The notes beneath the pieces were generated by a model. It worked only from the letters and a program-made list of their open reading frames with translations, was not told the DNA's origin and made no database searches. From Escherichia phage vB_EcoM_NBG1, in sequence record MH243438.1: DNA of 64,000 nt. The stretch is one strand, 5' to 3'. Below are positions 1 to 45,283 of this stretch, in pieces. Numbering within the stretch: position 1 is the first letter of the stretch; each line of letters begins with the position of its first letter. Made by a program: the position numbers and the translations under genes.

Positions 1-1028
1 AAGTTGATGAACTGACGCTTAGCATCAATTTGCAATACACGATACACGTCGATAATGTTATAAGAAATATATCGTTGGTGATTGCTTTCACGAAGCTTAG
101 AAATAGGGCCGTCATATTTCAGTTTACCAACGTTCAATTCAAATTCTGAAATGTAATCCAGAGAATACGACGGTTGATTGGTAAAAGAGAATTTTTTGTA
201 AAGGTCAATGTAATCAAGAACAGAGATACCGAACAATGTAATGATTTCACGAGAACCATACATGTTTTCGATAACTTTAACACGAGTTTTACGATGTGGC
301 GATAAACGTTTCGCAGTAGATTCGCCAAAAATATTCTTGATTCGGTTATACACATATGGAATATCAAATGACTCAACGTTCCATCCAGTCAAAATGACAG
401 GAGTTTTCTGTTGCCAGAAGTTGAGATATTCCATCAATAATTCTTTTTCATTATCAAACGGCATATAAACAATTTTGTCGATAATTTCGGATGGAACTTC
501 ATCACCACCTTGTTCTTGAAGCTTAGCAGCGATTTCAATAGACCATTCTTCTACATTACCGTATGGAGAATTCAATAGATCAAATACGTAGAACCTGTCA
601 TCAATTGAGTCATAATGGGTGATAGCATCAATCGGATGTTTTGCTTGTGACGGCTCAGGGAACCCGTCCGGAGATGTTACTTCGATGTCGAAGTTAGCCA
701 CACGAATTTTTGTATGGTCATATTTGATTTCATAGTTATAAGTGTCAGACAAATACGCCAATTTGAAATCGTCCATGCCAAGTGCTTCAAGTCCGATATC
801 TTCCATGCGTTTAATCCATTGGGAAGCATCACGCATATTAGCGAACAGCTTACGAGTACACGGCTTACCGTAGATATCGAAATATTTCGTAGCCTGACTT
901 TCTGGACAATGAGCAAACAGTGATGGTTTATATTCTACTTCACGAGTACGTTCACGGCCATTAGAATCGATGTAACGTTCAAAAATTGAATCACCAATCT
1001 GTTCAACCGTTAAGTAAAATTCTTTCAT
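1..1028 (-). CDS. 43: DNA polymerase gp43, N-terminal ~342 codons (gene continues beyond window edge)
   Basis: Minus-strand ATG at 1026-1028 reads MKEFYLTVEQIGDSIFERYIDSNGRERTREVEY..., matching the T4 gp43 N-terminus; AGGA Shine-Dalgarno upstream; not in ORF track because truncated. Confidence 0.9.
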   Translation of the reverse strand, partial: MKEFYLTVEQIGDSIFERYIDSNGRERTREVEYKPSLFAHCPESQATKYFDIYGKPCTRKLFANMRDASQWIKRMEDIGLEALGMDDFKLAYLSDTYNYEIKYDHTKIRVANFDIEVTSPDGFPEPSQAKHPIDAITHYDSIDDRFYVFDLLNSPYGNVEEWSIEIAAKLQEQGGDEVPSEIIDKIVYMPFDNEKELLMEYLNFWQQKTPVILTGWNVESFDIPYVYNRIKNIFGESTAKRLSPHRKTRVKVIENMYGSREIITLFGISVLDYIDLYKKFSFTNQPSYSLDYISEFELNVGKLKYDGPISKLRESNHQRYISYNIIDVYRVLQIDAKRQFIN

Positions 1029-1109
1029 TTAATTTCCTTTAGACGAGTTATTGTCTTTTGTTTGTTGATGAACTTATTATACTCCAAATGGGACCGAAGT
1101 CCCATTGCT

Positions 1110-1478
1110 TTAATTACCAATTGTATATTTTGCTTTCAGAGTCCAGTCATCTTTCTGTTTAAAAGAGATAACACGGAAGTTATTAGTCAGGCCAAACAGA
1201 TCTTCACGAGCGGAGTCTTCAATAACAATCAAGCCCCAGTCTTCAAGCAACTGAGCAATCGAATCACGTCGTTGGTAGTCTTCACCATTGATATCAACTT
1301 GACGTCCGTCCATACGCAGCATTTCTTTAAAGTGGACGATGTAGTATTTACCTTGCTTTTGGAGGATATGACAGGACTGATAAAGGATTTTATCCTTGTT
1401 ATTAGCGATACCCATACGGGTCAGAGTCTCTTTGACTTTCAGAAAATCTTCAGGGTTCTTCAATTTAATTTCGATCAT
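1110..1478 (-). CDS. regA: RegA translational repressor
   Basis: MIEIKLKNPEDFLKVKETLTRMGIANNKDK... 122 aa from internal Met of track ORF; close match to T4 RegA. Confidence 0.85.
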   Translation of the reverse strand: MIEIKLKNPEDFLKVKETLTRMGIANNKDKILYQSCHILQKQGKYYIVHFKEMLRMDGRQVDINGEDYQRRDSIAQLLEDWGLIVIEDSAREDLFGLTNNFRVISFKQKDDWTLKAKYTIGN

Positions 1479-1480
1479 TT

Positions 1481-2044
1481 TTACCATTCCAATGCTAATT
1501 TTTTAAATTGTTTTTGTTCTTTCACATTTTTTGTAACTTCTTTGAGAAACTCATCAGTGACCATGGCCTTCAGTTCTTTAAGGACTATTGGCAGCTTGTT
1601 ATTTTTTTCAAGGAGCCGCTTATACTCGGTAGCATCATTCATGTTGATTGTGTAATGTTTCATCAACAATTTGATAACTAGTAACTCTGAAGTGTCTTCA
1701 ACCAGTTTAGCCCATTTAGAGAATCGTCGGCCACGCGGAATGGCGGCCATCATGTAGTTGAAGTGTGCTTCATCACTTAATTCAGAACCGACCAAGTTCA
1801 TCATGTAAACTGCGGGCATACATTCTGGAAACTGGGACAATGAGTTTTCAACCATAAATTTTGAGTAGTCAACCTGAGCAATTGACATCGATTTCTTTTC
1901 ATTAATTGCGTTAATGATTTTAAAGAATTCGTTCTCAGGTTTTTCTTTAAACATGTCAGCACATTTTTGAATCGCATCAGCGTCGTTAGACTTCCATGCG
2001 ATTTGGTGCTCGTTAAGTTGGACGTCATCATCAAATAAGTTCAT
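1481..2044 (-). CDS. 62: Clamp loader small subunit gp62
   Basis: 187 aa, position between regA and gene 44 as in T4. Confidence 0.8.
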
Positions 2045-2045
2045 A

Positions 2046-3008
2046 TTATTTCCAAGTCAATTCACAAGTCAATTGAAGAAGCATATACATAACATGTAAT
2101 TCAATATTACTAGCTAGTCCATGAAACTTATTATTTTCACCTGCAATTTCATAAAGCGAAATAATACTTTTACCTGGTGCGACTTTGTCATAACACTCAG
2201 AAACTAATTTATCGATGAACCATGAATAATCAGCGGCATATTTTGGAGCTAATGCACGAAGCTGTTTGATATCTTTATTTTTCATTGCTTCTATGACATC
2301 ATCTACCGTGCCACGATCATTGGTTACAATCGACAAAATACCTGCATCAAGAACACCTTTAGACGAGTACTGGTCTAATTGACCAATTGTACGACGAAAG
2401 TCCGGGAAGTTCTTTTTAACCAGAGCTGCAACAACTTTCATATCAGCGATTTCGATATTTTCGTTCTTACAGATTTCAACCATACGATGAATCATTTTCT
2501 TCATCATTGAGATTTTATCTTCTTCGGTTGGACGTCCGAATTCGATAACTCGACAACGACTACGTAACGGTTCGATAATTCCATCGATGTTGTTGGCAGT
2601 AATAATAATAGAACAGTTACTAGAGAATTCTTCCATGAATGTACGAAGGTGACGTTGTGATTCAGCGAGGCCACTACGGTCAAATTCATCAATAACAATA
2701 ACTTTAGGCTTGCCTTCCATTGAGACTGAACGAGCGAATGCAGTTAATGGACCACGCACAAAATCAATCTTACAATCAGAACCGTTGACGAACATCATTT
2801 CGGCATTGATATCATTACATAATGCTTTTGCTACGGTTGTTTTACCGGTACCAGGAGATGGAGAGTGTAAAATAATATGAGGAAGTTTTCCTTTAGATAC
2901 TAAAGACTTGAATGTTTCATGGTCATACGCAGGCAGAATACATTCGTCAATGGAAGAAGGACGATATTTCTGTTCTAGAATGTGTTCTTTGGAATTGATA
3001 GTAATCAT
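2046..3008 (-). CDS. 44: Clamp loader ATPase gp44 (RFC-like)
   Basis: 320 aa, Walker A GTGKTT, Walker B VIVIDEFD. Confidence 0.9.
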
Positions 3009-3083
3009 GTAATTTTCCTCATTATCATTAAACTGGAGGATTTCTCCTCCATAATCGTATCACAATAAACGTAAAGCTTTGAC

Positions 3084-3770
3084 TTAGAAGTCGTGAGTAG
3101 AATCGGCTTCCATCGCAATAACATAACTTACTTGAGAGCTTTCAAACTTAGCTGCAACTTTATCACCAGCTCCCCACAACATTACTTTATAGTTACCTGG
3201 CTGGATTTTCATATTAGCCATATTGATTACGAAGTTAAAGTTATTAGAACCGTCATAATCAGTAAGAGTCAAAGAATACTTAGGACGAGTTAGTCCGGAA
3301 TCTTCAACTTTATTATAGCCATTGATAACAATTTTACCATCTTTATTTGTAATAGCAATTGTATCAATCTGAAGACCACGTGAAACTCGAAGCAATTGTT
3401 GAAGGTCTTCAGCTTTAATTTCAGTAATCACAGAAGCCACTGGGAATTGAATTGGCTTATTAGGAAAAACAATGGTGCTCTTGTCGGCAGCAGGCCAATA
3501 AACTGTGGAACGTGTATCTGCAATTTTAATATTGCCATCAGTATGCATTGAAATTTCGGCATCATCAGACACTAGACTCAAAATGCTTAAGAAGCTATTC
3601 AAATCATAAAGTGCTACGTCAAAATCAATTTCATCAGAGATATTTGCTTCCGCATAAGTGGTGCCATTAACTGCACGAGTCATAATAAATTTACCTTGAC
3701 TCAGCAGAATGCCAGAGTTAATAGAGGCAAAGTTTTTCAGAATAGCGATAGTATCTTTAGACAGTTTCAT
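3084..3770 (-). CDS. 45: Sliding clamp gp45
   Basis: MKLSKDTIAILKNFASINSG... 228 aa from second Met; near identity to T4 gp45. Confidence 0.9.
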   Translation of the reverse strand: MKLSKDTIAILKNFASINSGILLSQGKFIMTRAVNGTTYAEANISDEIDFDVALYDLNSFLSILSLVSDDAEISMHTDGNIKIADTRSTVYWPAADKSTIVFPNKPIQFPVASVITEIKAEDLQQLLRVSRGLQIDTIAITNKDGKIVINGYNKVEDSGLTRPKYSLTLTDYDGSNNFNFVINMANMKIQPGNYKVMLWGAGDKVAAKFESSQVSYVIAMEADSTHDF

Positions 3771-3812
3771 TTTATTTCCTTTCAAGACAATTCAAAGTTT
3801 ATAACAAATTTA

Positions 3813-4229
3813 TTATGCAGCAACCATCTGCTTTTTAATAGCTTCAGGCAGTGATTCAATATATTCTGGAATTTTAGAAGCAACAATTTCGCCAGCTGCA
3901 ATTAGTTGTTCGTCGGCATCAACACAGTAAAAATCTTCAAGGCGTTCAGAACCGTCTTTATCAAGAACGATTTTAGCACCTGCTTCGATAGAATCTTTAT
4001 AGTGCTTACGCATCAAATGAATCCACATATCAGACACATCGTTATCAATAAAACCATAAATCATAAAACGAGTTTCTTGTGGCAAAGATTGGAGTTTTTT
4101 AGCACTTGCGTCATCACAATGCAGGACCCATGCTTTACGAACACGATTATGGTTATGCGGGTTAGCGTCAGTACGGATAGAAGTAACTTTCAGATCAGCA
4201 GCGGTAAAACCTTTAGCAGTAGTAAACAT
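3813..4229 (-). CDS. rpbA: RNA polymerase-binding protein RpbA (by position and size)
   Basis: 138-aa ORF directly upstream of gene 45 as in T4. Confidence 0.55.
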   Translation of the reverse strand: MFTTAKGFTAADLKVTSIRTDANPHNHNRVRKAWVLHCDDASAKKLQSLPQETRFMIYGFIDNDVSDMWIHLMRKHYKDSIEAGAKIVLDKDGSERLEDFYCVDADEQLIAAGEIVASKIPEYIESLPEAIKKQMVAA

Positions 4230-4241
4230 ATTATTTCTCTC

Positions 4242-4442
4242 TTATTCGTAGAAGTCGGTAACTGTCCATGCGGAATTGCGATTAGACATTATTTTATTAT
4301 ACTCATCTTTAAAAGCAGATTTGAGCATTTGTTCAGTAACAATATGTTCTTCACCTGAAAACGTATTGGTCAAAACATATTTTTTAATTTCAGGGACAAC
4401 GAGAAGATGTTGTCCAGTTGAATACTCCATGTTGTTCTCCAT
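4242..4442 (-). CDS. hypothetical protein (T4 45.2 position)
   Basis: 66-aa ORF, co-oriented, tight spacing. Confidence 0.45.
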   Translation of the reverse strand: MENNMEYSTGQHLLVVPEIKKYVLTNTFSGEEHIVTEQMLKSAFKDEYNKIMSNRNSAWTVTDFYE

Positions 4443-4484
4443 TTAATTTGATGTGGTCATTATAACCACATCGTGTTAAAGCGT

Positions 4485-6173
4485 TTATGAAACAGTCATT
4501 ACAGTAAATCGTCCAACTTTGCTCATCTGAAGATGTTGTCCATAACGTTGAGGGTCATGGTCTCTATGAGAGATAATGAACACATTAGTATTTTGTAAAC
4601 TACCAAGGATGGTATCTATAGCCTTAACAGCTTCAGAATCCACAGCGCCGTCAAAAACTTCATCTAAAATCAGAGTGTTGATTTTAACACCAGAAACCTT
4701 TTCAGCAATATCTCGCCATGTAAACAACAGTGCGATATCGATACGTGCTTTTTCACCTTGACTAAATGAAGCATAACTGAACTCTTCACGGCCACGTGAT
4801 TTTATAGACTCATTGAATTCTTCGTCAATAGAAAACACGTAATCGGCTTCCATGATTTTAAGATAATGGTTAATCTGCTTATTGAACAAAGGCACGTATT
4901 TTTTAATGATAGCACCTTTAATACCAGAATCTTTTAACATATCTGTGATAATACCACGATGGTATTTTTCAAGAACGATGTCTGATTTTGTTTTAATGAT
5001 TTTATCAAGTTCTTTTTGAAGCAAAGCTATCTCATCAGCATGGTCGATAAATTCTGCTGAGGCTTGCTCTATTGCAGCTTTAACTTTCTTAGCTTTATCA
5101 ATAGTGGCAATCATTGCTTGTTTCTTGGTACGAATATCAGATGCAAGGTCCTGTTTAGTCTTAACATTAGCTCTATATTCGTCCACTAGGACACTCAGAT
5201 TATCTCTGTGACAGGTAAGTTGCTCGAATGAGTGATTACATTCATGAAGCTTATCGGTAATCTTAGAGACAATAGGATCACCCTGGTGCAACTGTGATGC
5301 ACAAGTAGGACATGTACCGCCATCATGATACATCTTAATAACTTTGTTATATGAGTCAATTTTAGATTTAATCAAGAATGCTTCTTGTCCTATCTTGTCG
5401 AATGCCTCAGTAGGGTCTTCATCAAGAACGATATTAAGTAGTCGCTCATTAGCTTCTTCGATTTCTGCTTTTAATGAACGAGCTTCTTTGGCTAGGTCGT
5501 CATACATATTCTGTAGACGCGCTACATTATCACCGGATAATTTCTTTTGACGTTCGATATTCTCATTATAAATCTTAATTTGTTGGATAACACCATCTTT
5601 CTTGGCGTCGAGAACTTGCCCCTGGGAATTAAGTTCTCGAACTTGAGACTTATTGATTTTATCCATTTCAGCGAGCGTGCCAACTTCTAAAAGGTCTTCG
5701 ACAAGTTTTCTACGAGCAGGGGTGCTAAGAGCCATGAAAGGGGTATACCCTGCCGTCCCAAGCACAACGATTTGTTTAAAAGACGCGTATGACATTCCGA
5801 TGCTACGTTCAAATTCTTCTTGGAAGTCACGACTGCTGGCAGATTCATCGAGACGAACACCGTCAACGGAGATTTCGAAAATATTGGGCTTTTGGCCACG
5901 TTTAATGAAGTATTTTTTATCATCGAATTCCATCCAAAGCTCAACTAAGAGCTCTTTCTTGTTCGTGCTATTAATGATTTGTCCTTTCTTAACATCACGA
6001 AATGGTTTACCGAAAAGTCCGAAAGTAATGGCTTCTAACATCGTAGATTTACCACCGCCATTTTTACCAGTGATTAATGTCTTTTGGACTTTATCTAATT
6101 GGATATCAATAGGATTCCCACCTACCGACATGATGTTTTGATAACGAACACGATTTAATTTAAATGATTTCAT
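4485..6173 (-). CDS. 46: Recombination nuclease ATPase subunit gp46 (SbcC/Rad50-like)
   Basis: 562 aa, Walker A GKNGGGKST, long coiled-coil middle, C-terminal signature/Walker B LILDEVFDG. Confidence 0.9.
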   Translation of the reverse strand: MKSFKLNRVRYQNIMSVGGNPIDIQLDKVQKTLITGKNGGGKSTMLEAITFGLFGKPFRDVKKGQIINSTNKKELLVELWMEFDDKKYFIKRGQKPNIFEISVDGVRLDESASSRDFQEEFERSIGMSYASFKQIVVLGTAGYTPFMALSTPARRKLVEDLLEVGTLAEMDKINKSQVRELNSQGQVLDAKKDGVIQQIKIYNENIERQKKLSGDNVARLQNMYDDLAKEARSLKAEIEEANERLLNIVLDEDPTEAFDKIGQEAFLIKSKIDSYNKVIKMYHDGGTCPTCASQLHQGDPIVSKITDKLHECNHSFEQLTCHRDNLSVLVDEYRANVKTKQDLASDIRTKKQAMIATIDKAKKVKAAIEQASAEFIDHADEIALLQKELDKIIKTKSDIVLEKYHRGIITDMLKDSGIKGAIIKKYVPLFNKQINHYLKIMEADYVFSIDEEFNESIKSRGREEFSYASFSQGEKARIDIALLFTWRDIAEKVSGVKINTLILDEVFDGAVDSEAVKAIDTILGSLQNTNVFIISHRDHDPQRYGQHLQMSKVGRFTVMTVS

Positions 6174-6424
6174 ATGTATTCTCTTCGAATGAAGTCCTCT
6201 ACATATTTTAACATGTCATCTCTATCAGCAAAATATTCATCTAGTTCTGCATACATAACAACACCTGGTGCGTACTCACAGGTAACATACATTGTTCCAA
6301 AGAAACGAGGAGTTGATTCCTCGTAATTCTCAGTCCATTCAACGATACCAATATAACCGTCACCAATACTAAATTCATGACGATGGATTTCATAATCAGT
6401 CTTCGTCATTATACGCATCCTCAA
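6170..6424 (-). CDS. hypothetical protein (46.1 position)
   Basis: 84-aa ORF overlapping gp46 start by 4 nt. Confidence 0.5.
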   Translation of the reverse strand: MRMRIMTKTDYEIHRHEFSIGDGYIGIVEWTENYEESTPRFFGTMYVTCEYAPGVVMYAELDEYFADRDDMLKYVEDFIRREYI

Positions 6425-17277: not shown

Positions 17278-17683
17278 TATTTTTCCTTTCATCAATTAAA
17301 TATGCAATGCCAAATACAATACATGTAATAAAACCTGTGATACAGATAGAAACCAACAACACTGTACCAAAGAACCAAATCAAGTTATCTTTAGTAGTTT
17401 GTTTGATATCCATCTCACGAATTTCTATAGCTATCGTATCACCTTTATTCAGAAGCGTATAAAACGATGGCGATACACGTCTGTCAAAAACTCGTCCTTG
17501 CTCATCTTTATAGACTGCAATAAATTCTAATTTAGAATATTTTCCTGTAGATTGACCTGAGATTAGCTCTACTACCTCCACAGGAATTACTTTAGTTTCC
17601 ATGTAAGTATTCTGGCTGTTCCAAATGAATGGAATAATAGCAAAAACTAAAGCTGCGATAAAACAACGAAAGCTATATCTCAT
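17270..17683 (-). CDS. membrane protein
   Basis: 137 aa with N- and C-terminal hydrophobic helices. Confidence 0.5.
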   Translation of the reverse strand: MRYSFRCFIAALVFAIIPFIWNSQNTYMETKVIPVEVVELISGQSTGKYSKLEFIAVYKDEQGRVFDRRVSPSFYTLLNKGDTIAIEIREMDIKQTTKDNLIWFFGTVLLVSICITGFITCIVFGIAYLIDERKNNV

Positions 17684-20016: not shown

Positions 20017-21011
20017 CATTCCTTAAGAAGTTTTACTACTTGAATAAGATTAGCTCGTTCTGTTTTATTTTTACCATTTAAGCCTGCTAATCGTGAGATT
20101 TCATCGTCAGTCTGTTGAATAGTTACATTAAGTTCGTTAATCAAAGCTTCAAAGTATTTGATTTGCTCAGCATGTTTTGATTCAAATTTCTGAACAGGAA
20201 TAACGTCTTGGTTCAGTTCATCAATAAGGTCTTTAAGAGCATCTTCTTGGTTGATATCATATTCAACTTCTTTTATTTCTTCAACGAGCTCGTCTTTATA
20301 TCTAACGTCTTTTAGTCCTGGTGCTGGTCCTGAAATCTCTTCTTTAAGAGTACAAACATATCCAATACGGTATCCAATGCCGTCTCGCTTGATATCAACT
20401 TCGTCGATAAATCCACAATGTTTAAGCCCGGAGCCGATTATGTCAAAATATCCTTGACGTCGTCCTTCAAACGTTACACGAACTACTAAGACAGTTTTAC
20501 CTGCAACCTTTTGAAGCTCACATTTATAAAAGTCAGTTGAACCTGAATAACGTGGATTAGTTTTAAAGTTCATCTGACGATCTAGGCCCATTTGTAAGCG
20601 TGCTGTTACGGCCATAAAACGTGTTTGGTTCTCGTTAAGATGAGCAACAATCCATTTCAAAGGCATTTTACACTGTTCACGGCCGAACAAATCAGTACGT
20701 CCTAAATTACGCAGGATATTGTTAGAGTTAATCATCGACAGAACGTTAAGTTTATTCAGCGCGCTGAAGATTCCATCGGCCATTGATTTTCCGTAACCTT
20801 TACACGCTTTAATAAGTGCTCGCGGTAGATTAGTATAGATTTCAGACGGCATATGAAAATCAAATTTACTAACCAGTAATTGATGAACTTGGATAGCAAT
20901 TTGTTCATAATTAAGTGCTCTGCGATCATTATGGTCTTTAAACCACACTTTAATCTGTGAAGCACATAAACCGTTAATTTCATGTTTTACCGCATCAGAT
21001 GTAATGCTCAT
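20016..21011 (-). CDS. hypothetical protein with C-terminal coiled coil (331 aa)
   Basis: Globular N-terminal part plus acidic coiled-coil tail. Confidence 0.6.
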   Translation of the reverse strand: MSITSDAVKHEINGLCASQIKVWFKDHNDRRALNYEQIAIQVHQLLVSKFDFHMPSEIYTNLPRALIKACKGYGKSMADGIFSALNKLNVLSMINSNNILRNLGRTDLFGREQCKMPLKWIVAHLNENQTRFMAVTARLQMGLDRQMNFKTNPRYSGSTDFYKCELQKVAGKTVLVVRVTFEGRRQGYFDIIGSGLKHCGFIDEVDIKRDGIGYRIGYVCTLKEEISGPAPGLKDVRYKDELVEEIKEVEYDINQEDALKDLIDELNQDVIPVQKFESKHAEQIKYFEALINELNVTIQQTDDEISRLAGLNGKNKTERANLIQVVKLLKE

Positions 21012-21073
21012 AACTATTTCCTCAGATTGAATTGGAACTCAAAACCATTATAACCCGTCCTTGGGTAAAGCGT

Positions 21074-21601
21074 TTATGCGTGAACCGTCTTTAAACGTTC
21101 TTCAAATTTCCGAAGAGTACTAATACGTTCTGCTTTCTGTTTTGTATAGTTTGCAATACGTTCTGAAGTGAGAGCGTATCGTTCGTTTACTGTTTCTTTC
21201 ATGAAGTCAGGGATTTCACGAGAAGCTTTAATTTCATCAAACTTATCGAGTACTGCCTGGTCTTCAGCAATTAAATTTTCGTACATCTCGATATCTTTCT
21301 TGATGAAGTCGATATCTTCCTGGGTTACTTTGGATAAACGAGATGCTTTATCCTTTTTGTACTGCTCGTTAGTTTCACGAGACCAGAATAATGTACGTTT
21401 TTTGTTAGTGTTTTTGTAGACTTCCACAATTCCAACTGAATCGATGATAACAATCCAATTCCAGCGAGATTTGAAAATCTGACCTCCGTCCACGGTAATC
21501 TCGTTACCATAAGCAATGTCATTAAAGAACTTACTTTGTGCTTCAGATTTAAATTTACCGTCGTTATAATTTACCAGGTTGAAAATATCTTTAGCGTTCA
21601 T
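21074..21601 (-). CDS. hypothetical protein
   Basis: 175 aa; GGAGG Shine-Dalgarno. Confidence 0.55.
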   Translation of the reverse strand: MNAKDIFNLVNYNDGKFKSEAQSKFFNDIAYGNEITVDGGQIFKSRWNWIVIIDSVGIVEVYKNTNKKRTLFWSRETNEQYKKDKASRLSKVTQEDIDFIKKDIEMYENLIAEDQAVLDKFDEIKASREIPDFMKETVNERYALTSERIANYTKQKAERISTLRKFEERLKTVHA

Positions 21602-21628
21602 GTTTTACCTCCAGTAGTTGATAGGTCT

Positions 21629-21657
21629 ATAATAACATAACCATAGACCTTGTAAAC
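21629..21657 (-). promoter_or_regulatory. Early promoter with palindrome GGTCTAT...ATAGACC
   Basis: Minus strand GTTTAC, 17-nt spacer, TATTAT. Confidence 0.5.
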
Positions 21658-21659
21658 AA

Positions 21660-21947
21660 CTAAAAGAAACTTTTTTCGGTATTTTTTCCACTGAACCAAA
21701 CAGACTTCGGGATTTTTTGTAATTTTTCAGATTTAAGTTTCTCTTCCTGTTCTTTCTTATATACACCCTTGTCGTACTGGAGCATCTCTATGGCATTCTT
21801 TTGCAAACGATCTAAGGTAATTAAGGCTTTAGTTTTTCCTTTCAAGGAAGAGTCCTGGCGAACCTCCTCACTATATTGCATCGTAGAACTAACCATACGA
21901 TGAGCATACAGTTCGACTGCGGCTTTAATTTTTTGCATAAAATCCAT
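21660..21947 (-). CDS. hypothetical protein
   Basis: 95-aa ORF. Confidence 0.5.
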   Translation of the reverse strand: MDFMQKIKAAVELYAHRMVSSTMQYSEEVRQDSSLKGKTKALITLDRLQKNAIEMLQYDKGVYKKEQEEKLKSEKLQKIPKSVWFSGKNTEKSFF

Positions 21948-22084
21948 AACATATCCTCTTTGATTTGTACATCATTATTTTAAATATTTCTATGCCCTCA
22001 GTAGGTTCCTGGTGTCCTTCTTTGAGGTAAGCCATATGATTATTCATCTTTATGGCTTTTGTTACCTCAGAACTTCCTATAAGC

Positions 22085-23086
22085 TTATTTCAGTAAAGTT
22101 ACTTCAGAGATTTCCTCCCAACCATCTTTATCAGTTGAAATAAAATCTGCTACATAAAGAGCGGTACGTAATGATACATTGCGAAGACGAGATACATTAG
22201 CCTTCATCCAGGACAATGCTTTGTACGTTTCTGCATCCGTCAGGCCACGTTTCTGCATCATGTCAGTAGATAATATTACATCTTCAACTCGAACCATAAT
22301 CTCTTCATTAGAGTGTACTCCAAGGTCGAGATACACTGAACGAGATACTAAAGCTTGAAGGTGTGGAGCAAGTTTCGAACCCCGTTCTAACTCTTTATCG
22401 ATATCAACGTTTGTAATGAAAACGATAGTACCTTCAAACTCAAATTCTTTATCAATACCCTTATCCTCGAGATAAGATGACGCAGTGCTCCAACAAACTT
22501 TGCGTTTATCGCCTGTATCTAATGCTGCTTTAAGAAGGTTCAAGATGTCCATATCTGAGAATACGTCAACGTCGTCGATTAAGAGAACGCTGTCTGCATC
22601 ACGGTTGAGCCAAAGTTGTTCGTAAAGGCCAATACCAGAGATTTTACCATTAATGCTTTTGTATTTGATGAAACCATTACCATTAGCATTATTAAGTGCT
22701 TTATCCAGAGAGTACGTCTTACCAATACCGGCTGCACCTGAAATAATGAGTGAACGAATTTTGCCATCGATAATGCCATTCGTCATCATGTTCATTACTT
22801 TAAAGCGTTTGTTGATACGAGTTTTCATATCTTCAGCGCTTTCAATAACTGCAACTGGTGACGTCTCAACTCCTTCCATTACGATGTCTGATTTGAAGAC
22901 CCATACTCCACGTTCAGAACCATCAATCATAACGAAAATTTTACCATCACCTAAGTGGGAACATTCAGGATTAAGCTTTGCCGGGAACCATGTCTTTGTG
23001 GCGACATAAGAACCAGAGATTTCGTTATTACGATAGATACCTTTTTTGATTTGAACGTTGAACATTTTATTCTCCAATTTACTCAT
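22085..23086 (-). CDS. P-loop NTPase (AAA-like) of unknown function
   Basis: Walker A GAAGIGKT, Walker B VLLIDDVD, sensor-like FITN; ~110-aa N-terminal extra domain. Confidence 0.6.
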   Translation of the reverse strand: MSKLENKMFNVQIKKGIYRNNEISGSYVATKTWFPAKLNPECSHLGDGKIFVMIDGSERGVWVFKSDIVMEGVETSPVAVIESAEDMKTRINKRFKVMNMMTNGIIDGKIRSLIISGAAGIGKTYSLDKALNNANGNGFIKYKSINGKISGIGLYEQLWLNRDADSVLLIDDVDVFSDMDILNLLKAALDTGDKRKVCWSTASSYLEDKGIDKEFEFEGTIVFITNVDIDKELERGSKLAPHLQALVSRSVYLDLGVHSNEEIMVRVEDVILSTDMMQKRGLTDAETYKALSWMKANVSRLRNVSLRTALYVADFISTDKDGWEEISEVTLLK

Positions 23087-23184
23087 TTCGTTTCGATAGG
23101 TCTATAATAACATATCCTAAAAGCATGTACACTACTTTTTTAAAAATATTTTAACCCCCTAAAGGGACCCGAAGGTCCTCGCAT

Positions 23185-23451
23185 TTACTTATCGCACTTA
23201 GCAACATAATTAGGCATATCACAGAATACGGAGCGAGTAACTATTCGTCCCTTTGACCATGCTTCAGTTGCTTGTCCGGCCGTGCTATTAATATAGCTTG
23301 ATTTGATATTCTCAATACCCTGAGAATGTGATGCATTTACCGAACCGTTGGAAGGCCCAGAAGACTGGTTACCACCAGCTCCTGTACCTGTGGTAGCACC
23401 AACAGAGAATGCCATCATTACTGCGAATAAACCAATTACTAATTTTTTCAT
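23185..23451 (-). CDS. small secreted protein
   Basis: 88 aa, N-terminal signal-like MKKLVIGLFAVMMAFSVGA, Gly/Ser-rich. Confidence 0.5.
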   Translation of the reverse strand: MKKLVIGLFAVMMAFSVGATTGTGAGGNQSSGPSNGSVNASHSQGIENIKSSYINSTAGQATEAWSKGRIVTRSVFCDMPNYVAKCDK

Positions 23452-23482
23452 ATTTACCTCAAGTTAAGAGTTATTTATCTAC

Positions 23483-24472
23483 TTATTTATAGTAAGAATT
23501 ATGATTTTCGAGATAGACTTGCTCAAGGAAATCATCCCAGAAACTCATATCTACTTTTTGTTGCATACCGTTCTTAGCGGCTTGTTCTGATGCTTGTTCT
23601 ACCTGGTCAACAATGACTTCCAGGAATTCTTGTACAGTTTTAAACGTATGTTTACCAAGCTTAACATCGAGAATAAATGGAGCATCCTGAAGTGGGTAAA
23701 CCAAGTCACCGGTTTTGTAAATTTCCAATAATTGAAGTCCACCACGACATGCATGACTCAATGCTTTCCAGTCAATACCTTCGTTAGCTTCTGCCTTACG
23801 AGCACGTTCACCATAGTTCTCTTCCAGTTTAACCAGGATGGCATTGAACTCTTTATTGGTTAACGTATCTTGGAATTTACGGTCTAACAGATTATAGAAT
23901 GTTTGCTTACCTGTTTTCTCGTTTTCGGTTTCAATCCACGAAGCAAATTCACCTACAGGCAGAACATTCTTCATATGTGATAAACGAATTACTGCGCCAT
24001 TATCAAAGTATTGTCCCCATTCATTAGAACGTTTAAGGGCTTGACGAAGAACAGCCAGTCGAGAACCCTTGACACCGTATTTAGAAGCTTGCTTACGGAC
24101 ATACCCCAAATAAGATTTCATGTTAGTGGTATAGAAACGAGACCTGTTATCTTGAATATACTTCCACACGTCAGGCAAATCAGATTTAACCACTAGACTT
24201 GGTGGAGTGTGAAGCATATCTAATGCGACAGTTTCACCATCCGCAGCTAGTTTAAAGAAATATTTGAGACTATACAACTCATGGTCCACGTCGTCTTTTG
24301 TGTTCTTAGAAGATGTGTTATTCGTGTTCTTGCTCATGTGTTCTTTAACGTTACCGGTCAAGATATCACGAGCATGAGGGACATAAATTTCTTTAAAATC
24401 GACGTCAGATTCAGGAGTAGACGTTCCATAAAGGTGGCTACCAAAGTAGCCTTTCATAATTGTTTTCATCAT
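23483..24472 (-). CDS. Nucleotidyltransferase-fold protein (Pol-beta superfamily)
   Basis: N-terminal GSHLYGTSTPESDVDF (GS-x9-SDxD) plus downstream acidic residues; ~250-aa helical C-terminal part. Confidence 0.55.
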   Translation of the reverse strand: MMKTIMKGYFGSHLYGTSTPESDVDFKEIYVPHARDILTGNVKEHMSKNTNNTSSKNTKDDVDHELYSLKYFFKLAADGETVALDMLHTPPSLVVKSDLPDVWKYIQDNRSRFYTTNMKSYLGYVRKQASKYGVKGSRLAVLRQALKRSNEWGQYFDNGAVIRLSHMKNVLPVGEFASWIETENEKTGKQTFYNLLDRKFQDTLTNKEFNAILVKLEENYGERARKAEANEGIDWKALSHACRGGLQLLEIYKTGDLVYPLQDAPFILDVKLGKHTFKTVQEFLEVIVDQVEQASEQAAKNGMQQKVDMSFWDDFLEQVYLENHNSYYK

Positions 24473-24942
24473 TTAGCCTTATATTCAAGAGTAGGACAGA
24501 CTTTTTCTTTACGAGCTTTAAGGTATTCGCCTATTAATGATTTCTTACGTTCAATAGGCTCAAGTCCATTTTTAATTCGTTCTTGGTTTTGCGCAATGAG
24601 CTCAATTTCTTTATAATATTTTCTGTCGTTATATTTGTCTAACAGCCAAGACGGACCAATTACCAACCCGGTAGCAATAAAAGCCATGACTGCTACAATT
24701 AAAATGCCCACACCAATTGAGGCCGGAACTAATGTCCATAGACTGCTAAAAACAAAGAATTTAGTTAAAATTTCCTGGCCAATGATTGTGACTGCTGCTA
24801 AAATCGCAAATCCAATAATTGAAGCAGCCAATACCGGGATTAACGTTTTCCAAAAATAAGCACACAACGTTTTCGGACGATTCCATGTACTATTGAACGC
24901 GGCATAAATTTTAAAGTGCCAAGAGTTTTCATTGATAATCAT
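24469..24942 (-). CDS. membrane protein (about 3 TM helices)
   Basis: 157 aa; stop overlaps start of NTase gene by 4 nt. Confidence 0.5.
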   Translation of the reverse strand: MIINENSWHFKIYAAFNSTWNRPKTLCAYFWKTLIPVLAASIIGFAILAAVTIIGQEILTKFFVFSSLWTLVPASIGVGILIVAVMAFIATGLVIGPSWLLDKYNDRKYYKEIELIAQNQERIKNGLEPIERKKSLIGEYLKARKEKVCPTLEYKAK

Positions 24943-24951
24943 AATAATTCC

Positions 24952-25482
24952 TTATTTCAAAGTTGGGATAATAGAATCGAGATAAGCTTTAAGAGCAACT
25001 GCTTCATCTTTGTCTAATGTAATGATATGCTGACGAAGGTCATCAATTTGGCGAATAACTACGACATCACCGTCTTCATAAGAAGGATTAACGCCTAGGA
25101 CTGTTGTATAGTCAGGGCGGTCCTGATTTGTAATAAAAGCATTACGGCATTTAGCCCATTGAAGTTTGGCCTTTTTGGCAGTTTCAGATTCTATGAATTC
25201 TTTCACCTTAGTGACGAATGTTTTCCAATTATTGATAGAAAGGCATTCATCTTCTGTTTCGATATTAACCCCACTATAAAGACCGTGATAAAAACGAACT
25301 TGAAGGTCTTCATCAATGTTAATTACAGATGCATGGCCGGGCGGATTGAGTTTCAAAATCTTGTCCAGTTCCATAGGAAGAATAGTAACAGCATCATCTT
25401 CTTGTGTCAGAACGTAAGCATAACCACGTTTTTCGATACATAAATCGCCAAACAACTCGGTTGTTTCAATTACAGTTTTCAT
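24952..25482 (-). CDS. hypothetical protein
   Basis: Track ORF begins at TTG; likely ATG start MKTVIETTELF at 25482. Confidence 0.5.
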   Translation of the reverse strand: MKTVIETTELFGDLCIEKRGYAYVLTQEDDAVTILPMELDKILKLNPPGHASVINIDEDLQVRFYHGLYSGVNIETEDECLSINNWKTFVTKVKEFIESETAKKAKLQWAKCRNAFITNQDRPDYTTVLGVNPSYEDGDVVVIRQIDDLRQHIITLDKDEAVALKAYLDSIIPTLK

Positions 25483-25483
25483 A

Positions 25484-25663
25484 TTATTCACCAATTAAAG
25501 TTTCAACAAAATTCACCAAATCATTCAGACAAGCATCAACCTGATTTTCATAAAAGTCTTCGTTATCATTTACTGCATGATAAGCTACATCATTCAAATC
25601 TGAATCGGCTTCACGTAAGTTACGGATAAGTTCCATCAATTTATTAGCTTGTTCACGGGTCAT
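25484..25663 (-). CDS. small hypothetical protein (59 aa)
   Basis: Hand-translated MTREQANKLMELIRNLREADSDLNDVAYHAV... Confidence 0.35.
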   Translation of the reverse strand: MTREQANKLMELIRNLREADSDLNDVAYHAVNDNEDFYENQVDACLNDLVNFVETLIGE

Positions 25664-25827
25664 TTTACCATACTCGTTTCAATAAGATTCACTATGCCGT
25701 TTACCATGTTATAAGTAAACATCGGATAATTGTATTGTACTACAACATAAGAGATAAGCAAAAGTTTCATTTTGTTCTCCGTTCGTTTTGGTAGGACTAC
25801 TATAACATAATCCTACCAAGATGTAAA

Positions 25828-26061
25828 CTACCGATTGTGTTTTAAATGTTGATAAAGTTCTTCAACTTGTTTAGGGTCCAAAACAATTAGGTCATTTTCT
25901 TGACGAAGATAAATCCATCCCTTATCCCCAGGTCCATTTTTACAAAACATCACCACCATATCATCATCTTCAGCGCTTTCAGGTAAAAGTTCAAGTACAC
26001 CGTCTTCAGATTTTCCAGTATAATCGTAAAGCATAATATCCTCACATAATCTCGTTAACAT
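25828..26061 (-). CDS. hypothetical protein
   Basis: 77-aa ORF. Confidence 0.45.
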   Translation of the reverse strand: MLTRLCEDIMLYDYTGKSEDGVLELLPESAEDDDMVVMFCKNGPGDKGWIYLRQENDLIVLDPKQVEELYQHLKHNR

Positions 26062-42571: not shown

Positions 42572-42648
42572 TGGCCGAGACAGAAGGATTCTAACCTTCA
42601 ACCTACGGATTAGAATTCCGTTGCTCTATACAATTGAGCTATGCCTCG
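42572..42648 (-). tRNA. tRNA-Arg (anticodon UCU)
   Basis: 77-nt cloverleaf folded by hand with 7-bp acceptor stem, GCTC/GAGC D-stem, anticodon loop AUUCUAA, T-arm GAAGG-TTAGAAT-CCTTC, encoded CCA. Confidence 0.7.
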
Positions 42649-42654
42649 AATATA

Positions 42655-42728
42655 TGACCCAGACCAGATTCGAACTGGTAACCTTTCCCTTATGAGGGGA
42701 CTGCTGCTAACCATTGAGCTACAGGGCC
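42655..42728 (-). tRNA. tRNA with CAU anticodon (Met or Ile2 type)
   Basis: 74 nt, anticodon loop CUCAUAA, T-arm ACCAG-TTCGAAT-CTGGT; one acceptor mismatch and unclear D-stem in my reading. Confidence 0.6.

Positions 42729-44597: not shown

Positions 44598-45283
<686 letters not shown>

Follow-up and report, generated by a model that had tools for sequence, protein, structure and literature searches.

What does a T4-like phage do with a Pol-β-type nucleotidyltransferase (NTase) whose gene starts within the end of a membrane-protein gene? The question is raised by a 64,000-nucleotide stretch of Escherichia phage vB_EcoM_NBG1 (MH243438.1), henceforth the window, in which the NTase gene occupies positions 23483..24472 on the minus strand and is preceded, in the order of transcription, by genes for a 157-residue membrane protein and a 176-residue soluble protein. 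A sequence-only reading had given the right coordinates for these three open reading frames (ORFs), all of which, as we add here, lie on the minus strand, and had suggested a counter-defense or host-takeover enzyme, naming cGAS/DncV-like signaling enzymes and the minimal NTases of toxin-antitoxin pairs among its possible relatives. Here we identify the NTase, from its sequence and gene position, as the ortholog of T4 NrdC.11 and as a long form of the RlaP family. By analogy with characterized members of that family, we propose with moderate confidence that NrdC.11 is an RNA 3'-end nucleotide adder, which, alongside phage Pnkp and Rnl1, would counter anticodon nucleases that excise nucleotides.

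Identification of the NTase as T4 NrdC.11

The window derives from a T4-like phage (Tequatrovirus) that is ~99% identical to published phages; for positions 21000-26000 there are matches in 815 phage records, with 98-99% identity to Escherichia phage vB_Eco_F31 and to Shigella phage JK45. The NTase is 329 residues long, or 328 if counted from a second ATG (24469) that is the start in most database entries. It aligns over its full length with T4 NrdC.11 (NP_049709; 77.7% identity over 336 aligned positions), which differs from it in being 336 rather than 328 residues long. Its gene takes the position of T4 nrdC.11 in the nrdC-tk accessory block, on the same strand, downstream of the mobD.1 ortholog and upstream of the nrdC.10 ortholog, and on these grounds we assign the two as orthologs. 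The loci differ on either side of the gene: in T4 the upstream neighbor of nrdC.11 is mobD, encoding an HNH homing endonuclease, whereas in the window it is the membrane-protein gene, and the window has an additional gene, for an 88-residue protein, after that of the NTase.

The gene is hence already known. T4 nrdC.11 has been catalogued since 2006, when matches of its orthologs to an NTase domain (COG3541) were reported (PMC1524935), and its product already carries the annotation "nucleotidyltransferase" and is counted among the RlaPs, T4 NrdC.11 having been placed in a separate cluster (cluster 5) of a PF10127 sequence-similarity network (PMC12776372). A protein 100% identical to the one studied here is deposited in GenBank as the "putative nucleotidyltransferase" of phage vB_EcoM_NBG1. 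The description of the surroundings as a phage accessory region holds, as the region is non-essential: T4 mutants without nrdC.11-mobD.3 are viable (PMC9825161). The sequence-only reading had also reckoned with a conserved T4 protein of established function; what we find is a known, conserved T4 gene whose role in the phage is as yet a prediction. It is an ordinary phage accessory gene rather than a new signaling or toxin enzyme. As a separate observation on nomenclature, the nrdC.11 ortholog and neighboring nrdC.x genes are labeled "thioredoxin" in many deposited phage genomes, apparently through annotation spill-over from the name nrdC.

A search of 1.84 billion representative proteins recovered 3199 relatives of the NTase at E<=0.001 and 736 at E<=1e-30; the best 150 matches listed are 34-90% identical to it and mostly full-length. 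A separate database search for homologs returned only phage NTases with 98-100% identity, and the diversity analyzed here is taken from the representative library. Conservation was assessed on an alignment of 139 homologs that are 33-53% identical, with residues given in the 328-residue numbering. The NTase motif, G10-S11 ... D22-x-D24, is accompanied by two further acidic segments, namely DDVDHE, which holds D60 and D62, and ALDML, which holds D84. G10 is invariant across the alignment, S11, D22, D24, D60, D62 and D84 are each at least 90% conserved, and D22, D24, D62 and D84 are invariant among the 22 most distant homologs. These include the acidic residues picked out in the sequence-only reading, whose assignment of the protein to the Pol-β-type NTases is correct. 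We predict that the catalytic triad consists of D22, D24 and D62. The C-terminal residues Y123, Q127, Y131, R222, D233, K235, H239, R242 and K270 are also at least 90% conserved among the 139 homologs.

The NTase matches phrog_388 (E=4e-125); PHROG matches extend from E=1e-53 to 1e-125 for the three ORFs, and as far as 1e-161 when the other genes of the locus are included. In comparisons with related phages, the NTase has a ratio of nonsynonymous to synonymous substitution rates (dN/dS) of 0.04-0.18; the membrane protein has 0.04-0.43 and the 176-residue protein 0.20-0.47. By both measures, the three ORFs are real genes and not chance ORFs, and the NTase is under strong purifying selection.

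A long form of the RlaP family

The NTase matches the Pfam family PF10127 (RlaP) with 48.7 bits against a gathering cutoff of 23 (E=1e-12), and the match recurs in 138 of the 139 aligned clade members. The function is thereby more evident than the sequence-only reading had assumed: the RlaP threshold is passed, and T4 NrdC.11 has itself been named an RlaP (PMC12776372). The match is limited to NTase residues 7-137, corresponding to positions 23-144 of the 249 in the model. Comparison of the long clade with 13 canonical short RlaPs using hhalign gives a probability of 94.9% (E=5e-8) over residues 1-131 only; it pairs GS with GS, SDxD (D22/D24) with SDYD, and D62 with the invariant "LD" aspartate of canonical RlaP.

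The canonical forms, represented by PfRlaP and PaRlaP of Pseudomonas (cluster 1a of the similarity network; PMC12776372), have in common with the window NTase the PF10127 domain and the GS...DxD...D motif. Like it, they have a helical domain after the NTase domain, which in the window NTase is predicted from a model (see below) and aligns with theirs no further than residue 131. They differ from it in being about 250-290 residues long and in matching the whole 249-position model. On these comparisons, NrdC.11 and its clade make up a long RlaP form in its own right, which shares the catalytic domain and has ~200 C-terminal residues that are specific to the clade. The distinctness of this long form is new here.

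Structure prediction, which the sequence-only reading had put forward as a check, yields a confident model of the NTase fold: AlphaFold2, with the 139-homolog alignment as input, gives a predicted local distance difference test score (pLDDT) of 94.4 and a predicted template modeling score (pTM) of 0.86. The model comprises an N-terminal α/β NTase core, a large helical region after residue 99 and a three-stranded β insert at 176-200. Fold searches of the PDB with this model retrieve Pol-β NTases only, all of them remote, the Foldseek matches being to 3c18, the ANT(4')/kanamycin NTase and HalB, with E ~1e-3 and TM-scores of 0.25-0.36. Together with the alignment to canonical RlaP, these matches lend indirect support to a clustering of the acidic triad in space. 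Searches of the PDB with the single NTase sequence and with the 139-sequence profile found no related solved structure.

Genomic contexts of the long NTases

To survey cellular homologs, one genome per prokaryotic species was scanned for the C-terminal motif of the clade, DWKA[LVI][SM]HAxR, which comes from a 22-sequence subset of the alignment. The scan gives 80 bacterial and archaeal loci, with full-length homologs of the long NTase at 33-52% identity; neighbors were clustered, annotated with Pfam and counted at the 72 loci with an ORF call for the long NTase. In 15 of the 67 loci whose downstream sequence is long enough for a judgment, the next gene downstream, on the same strand, encodes a canonical short RlaP (250-290 residues) that matches PF10127 over the full model, with E-values as low as 1e-81. 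Of 126 neighbors on the same strand, 14 belong to RlaP, far more than to any other family (at most three each). On a Nitrosospira contig (L114:1555-7743) the gene order is Ro60-RtcB-RtcA-long NTase-short RlaP, and tandems of a long NTase (~320 residues) with a short RlaP are also seen in L097, L101, L107, L110, L120, L132, L135, L149, L156, L160, L161 and L167. In bacteria, long and short RlaPs coexist as adjacent separate genes, sometimes inside RNA-repair operons. Such tandem pairs are not mentioned in the study that defined the similarity network (PMC12776372).

Across the 72 loci, RtcB is found within 6 kb of the long NTase in seven, Ro60/TROVE in four, RtcA in two and Hen1 in one; RtcB, RtcA, Ro60, Hen1 or a short RlaP occurs near the NTase at ~24 of them. 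RtcB/RtcA RNA-repair operons house both canonical RlaP and some of these bacterial homologs of the window NTase. No homolog of the phage membrane protein, of MobD.1 or of NrdC.10 was found adjoining the bacterial NTase genes.

T4, the window and 80 viral loci have the long form of RlaP only. Among the latter, viral contig L067 (IMG/VR 3300022221_000194, 991-6311) encodes an Rnl1-type ligase, a phrog_944 membrane protein related to that of the window, ThyX, a metallophosphoesterase, an AAA_33 kinase and the long NTase, with the kinase gene overlapping the start of the NTase gene. Pnkp and Rnl1 are both encoded in JK45, the annotated phage most closely related to the window. NrdC.10 is encoded downstream of the NTase in 35 of the 80 viral loci and the membrane protein upstream in 43 of the 80. 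We reject this synteny as a sign of a functional link: it is confined to T4-like phages, where rI and tk show the same degree of conservation, and hence reflects genome colinearity.

A predicted role in repair of excised tRNA breaks

Pnkp and Rnl1 of T4 were the first RNA-repair system to be discovered. The name RlaP refers to the linkage of this family to RNA ligase genes, and its members were predicted to replace, ahead of ligation, nucleotides that damaged RNA ends have lost (Burroughs and Aravind 2016, as relayed in PMC12776372 and PMC7824862). In jumbo phages the distribution of RlaP mirrors that of RNA ligases (PMC7824862). A preprint of December 2025 (PMC12776372) reports that PfRlaP and PaRlaP add one to two nucleoside monophosphates onto an RNA 3'-OH, using any nucleoside triphosphate (NTP) or dATP, with a preference for Mn2+, and that they do not accept DNA or protein. 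According to the same study, both favor a 3' end resembling that of a broken anticodon loop, both raise the aminoacylation of repaired tRNA that had lost one nucleotide of the anticodon loop, and their products carry the 3'-OH needed by 5'-phosphate ligases such as Rnl1. On the side of the host, the anticodon nuclease RloC cuts out the wobble nucleotide, and those who discovered it suggested that this is a means to defeat T4 repair (PMC2610378).

We infer an RNA substrate for NrdC.11, the addition of one to two nucleotides and a role in counter-defense, which, of the roles offered in the sequence-only reading, appears to be the best supported. In the pathway that we envisage, a host anticodon nuclease would cut a tRNA and remove at least one nucleotide, as RloC does with the wobble base. 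Phage Pnkp would then heal the ends to a 3'-OH and a 5'-phosphate, and NrdC.11, by means of D22/D24/D62 and a divalent metal, would add one to two untemplated nucleotides to the RNA 3'-OH. Finally, Rnl1 (or Rnl2) would seal the break, with Pnkp and the ligases being supplied from elsewhere in the genome. The products of NrdC.11 would suit sealing by Rnl1, since those of RlaP end in a 3'-OH and are compatible with 5'-phosphate ligases; an accessory role likewise fits, as T4 tolerates the nrdC.11-mobD.3 deletion.

Several observations weigh against this proposal. Nucleotide addition has been demonstrated for PfRlaP and PaRlaP only, and the work that did so terms T4 NrdC.11 an "RlaP of unknown function" (PMC12776372). 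The alignment with canonical RlaP ends at residue 131, the C-terminal ~200 residues with the β insert being specific to the clade, and given this region the choice of substrate may differ from that of the canonical enzymes. In roughly two thirds of the loci with bacterial homologs, no RNA-repair neighbor is recognizable. Rnl1, Rnl2 and Pnkp were not found in the 64-kb window; in JK45 Pnkp and Rnl1 are encoded ~80 kb from the nrdC.11 region, and T4-like genomes show no linkage of nrdC.11 to repair genes. The distant viral loci have mixed neighbors—helicases, PolA, a NUDIX protein, a C5-methylase and NAMPT. Moreover, a modified wobble base could not be restored by untemplated addition, and the benefit in vivo is uncertain.

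The membrane protein encoded upstream

The gene immediately upstream (24469..24942, minus strand) encodes the 157-residue membrane protein, which belongs to phrog_944 (E=7e-53). Hydropathy reveals two hydrophobic stretches, at 29-60 and 62-102, and the AlphaFold model (pLDDT 80) has two long helices, at 26-65 and 68-124. The protein had been described as having about three transmembrane segments; that it is a membrane protein stands, but a two-transmembrane hairpin is more likely than three segments. The model also has short β strands at the termini (2-4 and 153-155), and it seems likely that these pair and place both conserved segments on one side of the membrane. The conserved motifs are SWHxKL...P.xLCxYFW at the N terminus and YxKAxKxKxCPxxE at the C terminus; H9, C27, Y29 and K147 are invariant, C149 is nearly so, and the transmembrane region is poorly conserved.

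The membrane-protein gene occurs in 1208 phage records and its product has 88 detectable database homologs, those with a named source coming without exception from phage records or from enterobacterial assemblies that apparently hold phage sequence. No Pfam domain was found in the protein or in the 88 homologs, and searches of the PDB by sequence and by fold gave no match, the fold search returning noise (E>2). The whole T4 genome has no homolog of it. Its gene fills the slot that in T4 is taken by mobD, encoding a free-standing HNH homing endonuclease between mobD.1 and nrdC.11 (PMC2988022). On one related contig (L014:4779-7008), compared here with T4 (L002:15436-17209), the membrane-protein gene is present together with mobD, the latter lying as an insertion between it and the NTase gene; this is consistent with the T4 membrane-protein gene having been replaced by this mobile endonuclease.

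The sequence-only reading had treated the membrane protein as a partner of the NTase. It is not an obligate one, since T4 keeps nrdC.11 without the membrane-protein gene and ICP1, Aeromonas phage 65 and a Pakpunavirus have the latter without the NTase. The membrane protein and the MobD.1 homolog are co-oriented neighbors of the NTase, and any functional link of theirs to the enzyme is hypothetical.

Alternative functions

The repair of anticodon-loop breaks is not the only use to which an RNA 3'-end NTase could be put. It might mend tRNA 3'-CCA ends that host toxins have trimmed, or add short untemplated tails that alter the stability of host or phage RNAs during takeover. The evidence from family and fold would be identical; furthermore, RlaPs showed low specificity toward E. 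coli RNAs, labeling those of rRNA, tRNA and fragment size from all four NTPs (PMC12776372), the gene is unlinked to pseT or rnlA in T4-like genomes, and its neighbors in distant phages are heterogeneous. We nevertheless regard such roles as unlikely: the acceptor end is less favored by PfRlaP and PaRlaP than a 3' end that imitates a break in the anticodon loop (PMC12776372), it is with genes for ligases and end-healing enzymes, rather than decay factors, that the bacterial homologs are clustered, and for CCA repair a dedicated enzyme family exists already (PMC7824862).

A further possibility, which we hold to be unlikely, is that the long RlaP is functionally distinct and acts with partners: the short RlaP encoded downstream of it in bacteria (in the 15 of 67 loci noted above) and the membrane-anchored phrog_944 protein in phages. 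They would form a membrane-tethered or two-enzyme RNA-repair module that is so far undescribed. In addition to adjoining the long RlaP in T4-like phages, the phrog_944 gene directly precedes that of an Rnl1-type ligase in Pakpunavirus YS35, a Pseudomonas phage that is not T4-like (L005:4001-5337), and lies between Rnl1 and the kinase-RlaP pair in L067 and ~4 kb from Rnl1 in Aeromonas phage avDM2 (L173:5001-5390). In ICP1 and Aeromonas phage 65 no repair gene is found near it. The recurrence of phrog_944 beside phage RNA-repair genes, though suggestive, is thin.

An improbable reading is that the target is not RNA at all. It could be a small molecule, as for aminoglycoside and lincosamide NTases, or a protein that is AMPylated in the manner of MNT-, DrrA- or GlnE-type enzymes, in the service of takeover or detoxification. 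There is weak support for this at the level of the fold. The ANT(4') structures (PDB 1kny, 6un8), whose type of enzyme acts on small molecules, and the uncharacterized NTase-like 3c18 differ from the window NTase, with the TM-scores of 0.25-0.36 accompanied by 8-11% identity and no relationship at the sequence level.

The adjacency of a membrane protein and an NTase also recalls the Hailong pair, which consists of the channel HalA and the oligo-dA-making HalB. The phage NTase might produce an oligonucleotide that would gate, or mimic, a system of this kind, and so act against Hailong or in superinfection exclusion. HalB is among the remote fold matches of the NTase model, yet it goes undetected by the NTase sequence profile even at E<=10. 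It is a protein of 217 residues (PDB 9dbh) that primes synthesis on a protein tyrosine (PMC13434031), and has no detectable sequence relationship to the window NTase. The partner membrane proteins are unrelated: that of the window resembles no solved structure in either sequence or fold, not even that of HalA, and is a 157-residue two-transmembrane hairpin rather than a channel with a cytoplasmic crown. The pairing itself is not obligatory, as seen in T4 on the one hand and in ICP1, Aeromonas phage 65 and the Pakpunavirus on the other; no related membrane gene is present at any of the bacterial homolog loci, and the upstream position of the gene in T4-like phages parallels the general synteny seen for rI and tk. 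Searches with PADLOC and NCBIfam gave no meaningful match for any of the five proteins of the locus. We consequently find no basis for including the pair in Hailong and judge a Hailong-like function very improbable.

A cyclic-nucleotide synthase of the cGAS/DncV-like NTase (CD-NTase) class or the minimal NTase (MNT) of a toxin-antitoxin pair, both contemplated in the sequence-only reading, has the Pol-β NTase signature in common with the window NTase and only that, and can be given next to no weight: there is no Pfam or PADLOC match to CD-NTases, none is found among the best structural matches in the PDB, no CBASS-type effector is adjacent, and the locus lacks the arrangement of an MNT-HEPN pair, in which an NTase of ~100-150 residues lies beside a HEPN RNase toxin with the Rx4-6H motif.

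Organization of the locus and other genes

In the order of transcription, the genes of the locus, all on the minus strand, encode a 59-residue DUF7438 protein (25484..25663; PF24219, E=4e-14), the 176-residue protein (24952..25482), the membrane protein, the NTase, the 88-residue protein (23185..23451; phrog_2243, E=4e-38) and, after a 98-nucleotide gap, a 333-residue P-loop/AAA-like ATPase (22085..23086; phrog_1250, E=3e-161). The stop of the DUF7438 gene is 1 nucleotide ahead of the ATG of the MobD.1-like gene (at 25482), which itself ends 9 nucleotides ahead of the ATG of the membrane-protein gene. The DUF7438 gene is probably the first of the transcription unit containing the MobD.1-like gene. 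The junction between the membrane-protein and NTase genes reads ...AAATGATGAAA... on this strand. The TGA of the former (24471-24469) overlaps the first ATG of the NTase as ATGA (24469..24472, in ...GCTAAATGATGAAAACA...), an overlap that had been noted at the outset, and the second ATG by one base. Translation of the two genes may be coupled at this point.

A weak match to a sigma-70/T4-early-like promoter (TTTACA-17-TATAGT with TG; 25799..25827, minus strand), upstream of the gene string, and a weak terminator-like hairpin after the 88-residue protein gene (23153..23169, minus strand), both from consensus scans, bracket the five genes from DUF7438 to the 88-residue protein. The hairpin is a possible end of the transcription unit. 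Neither class of site is significant by itself, with 30 promoter consensus sites found against 28.7 expected from shuffled sequence and seven terminator-like sites against 5.0. The operon boundaries are hence tentative, and co-transcription of the string is what the gene spacing and these sites, which do not exceed chance, would suggest. Rfam and tRNA scans gave no match within 23483-25482.

The 176-residue protein had been set down as an unknown. It is the ortholog of T4 MobD.1 (y05I), to which it is 46.6% identical, and contains PF24449 (E=4e-41) and PF24448 (E=1e-19), which Pfam labels as the N- and C-terminal domains of a "putative transcription factor". The 88-residue protein, encoded between nrdC.11 and nrdC.10, has a signal-peptide-like N terminus (hydrophobic residues 1-23) and two C-terminal cysteines; the whole T4 genome has no homolog of it. 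The ATPase is the ortholog of T4 NrdC.10 (77% identity) and a conserved downstream neighbor of the NTase in T4-like phages; its Pfam AAA hits are sub-threshold only, and no solved homolog was found. In Acinetobacter phages NrdC.10 is better conserved than the NTase (62% vs 50% identity).

Elsewhere in the window, positions 17312-17611 (minus strand) encode a 44% identical relative of the T4 membrane protein NrdC.7. A homolog of T4 57B (85% identity), a gene that the T4 record labels "RNA ligase", is found at 44601-45056 (minus strand). The window has two tRNA genes only, Arg(tct) and a tRNA with a CAT anticodon, at 42572-42728 (minus strand); in T4 the equivalent place is taken by eight clustered tRNA genes.

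Implications

For our scan, the main value of this locus is negative, in that the enzyme is not a new signaling, toxin or Hailong-like one. For the characterization of the RlaP family, the tandem of long and short RlaPs in RtcB/Ro60 operons, the clade-specific C-terminal half of the long form and the recurring membrane protein near phage RNA repair may be of use. More generally, the analysis bears on whether phages can undo the action of "smart" anticodon nucleases, such as RloC, that delete a nucleotide from their target. For countering nucleases of the RloC type, NrdC.11 is an obvious candidate, and it resides in a genetically tractable phage.

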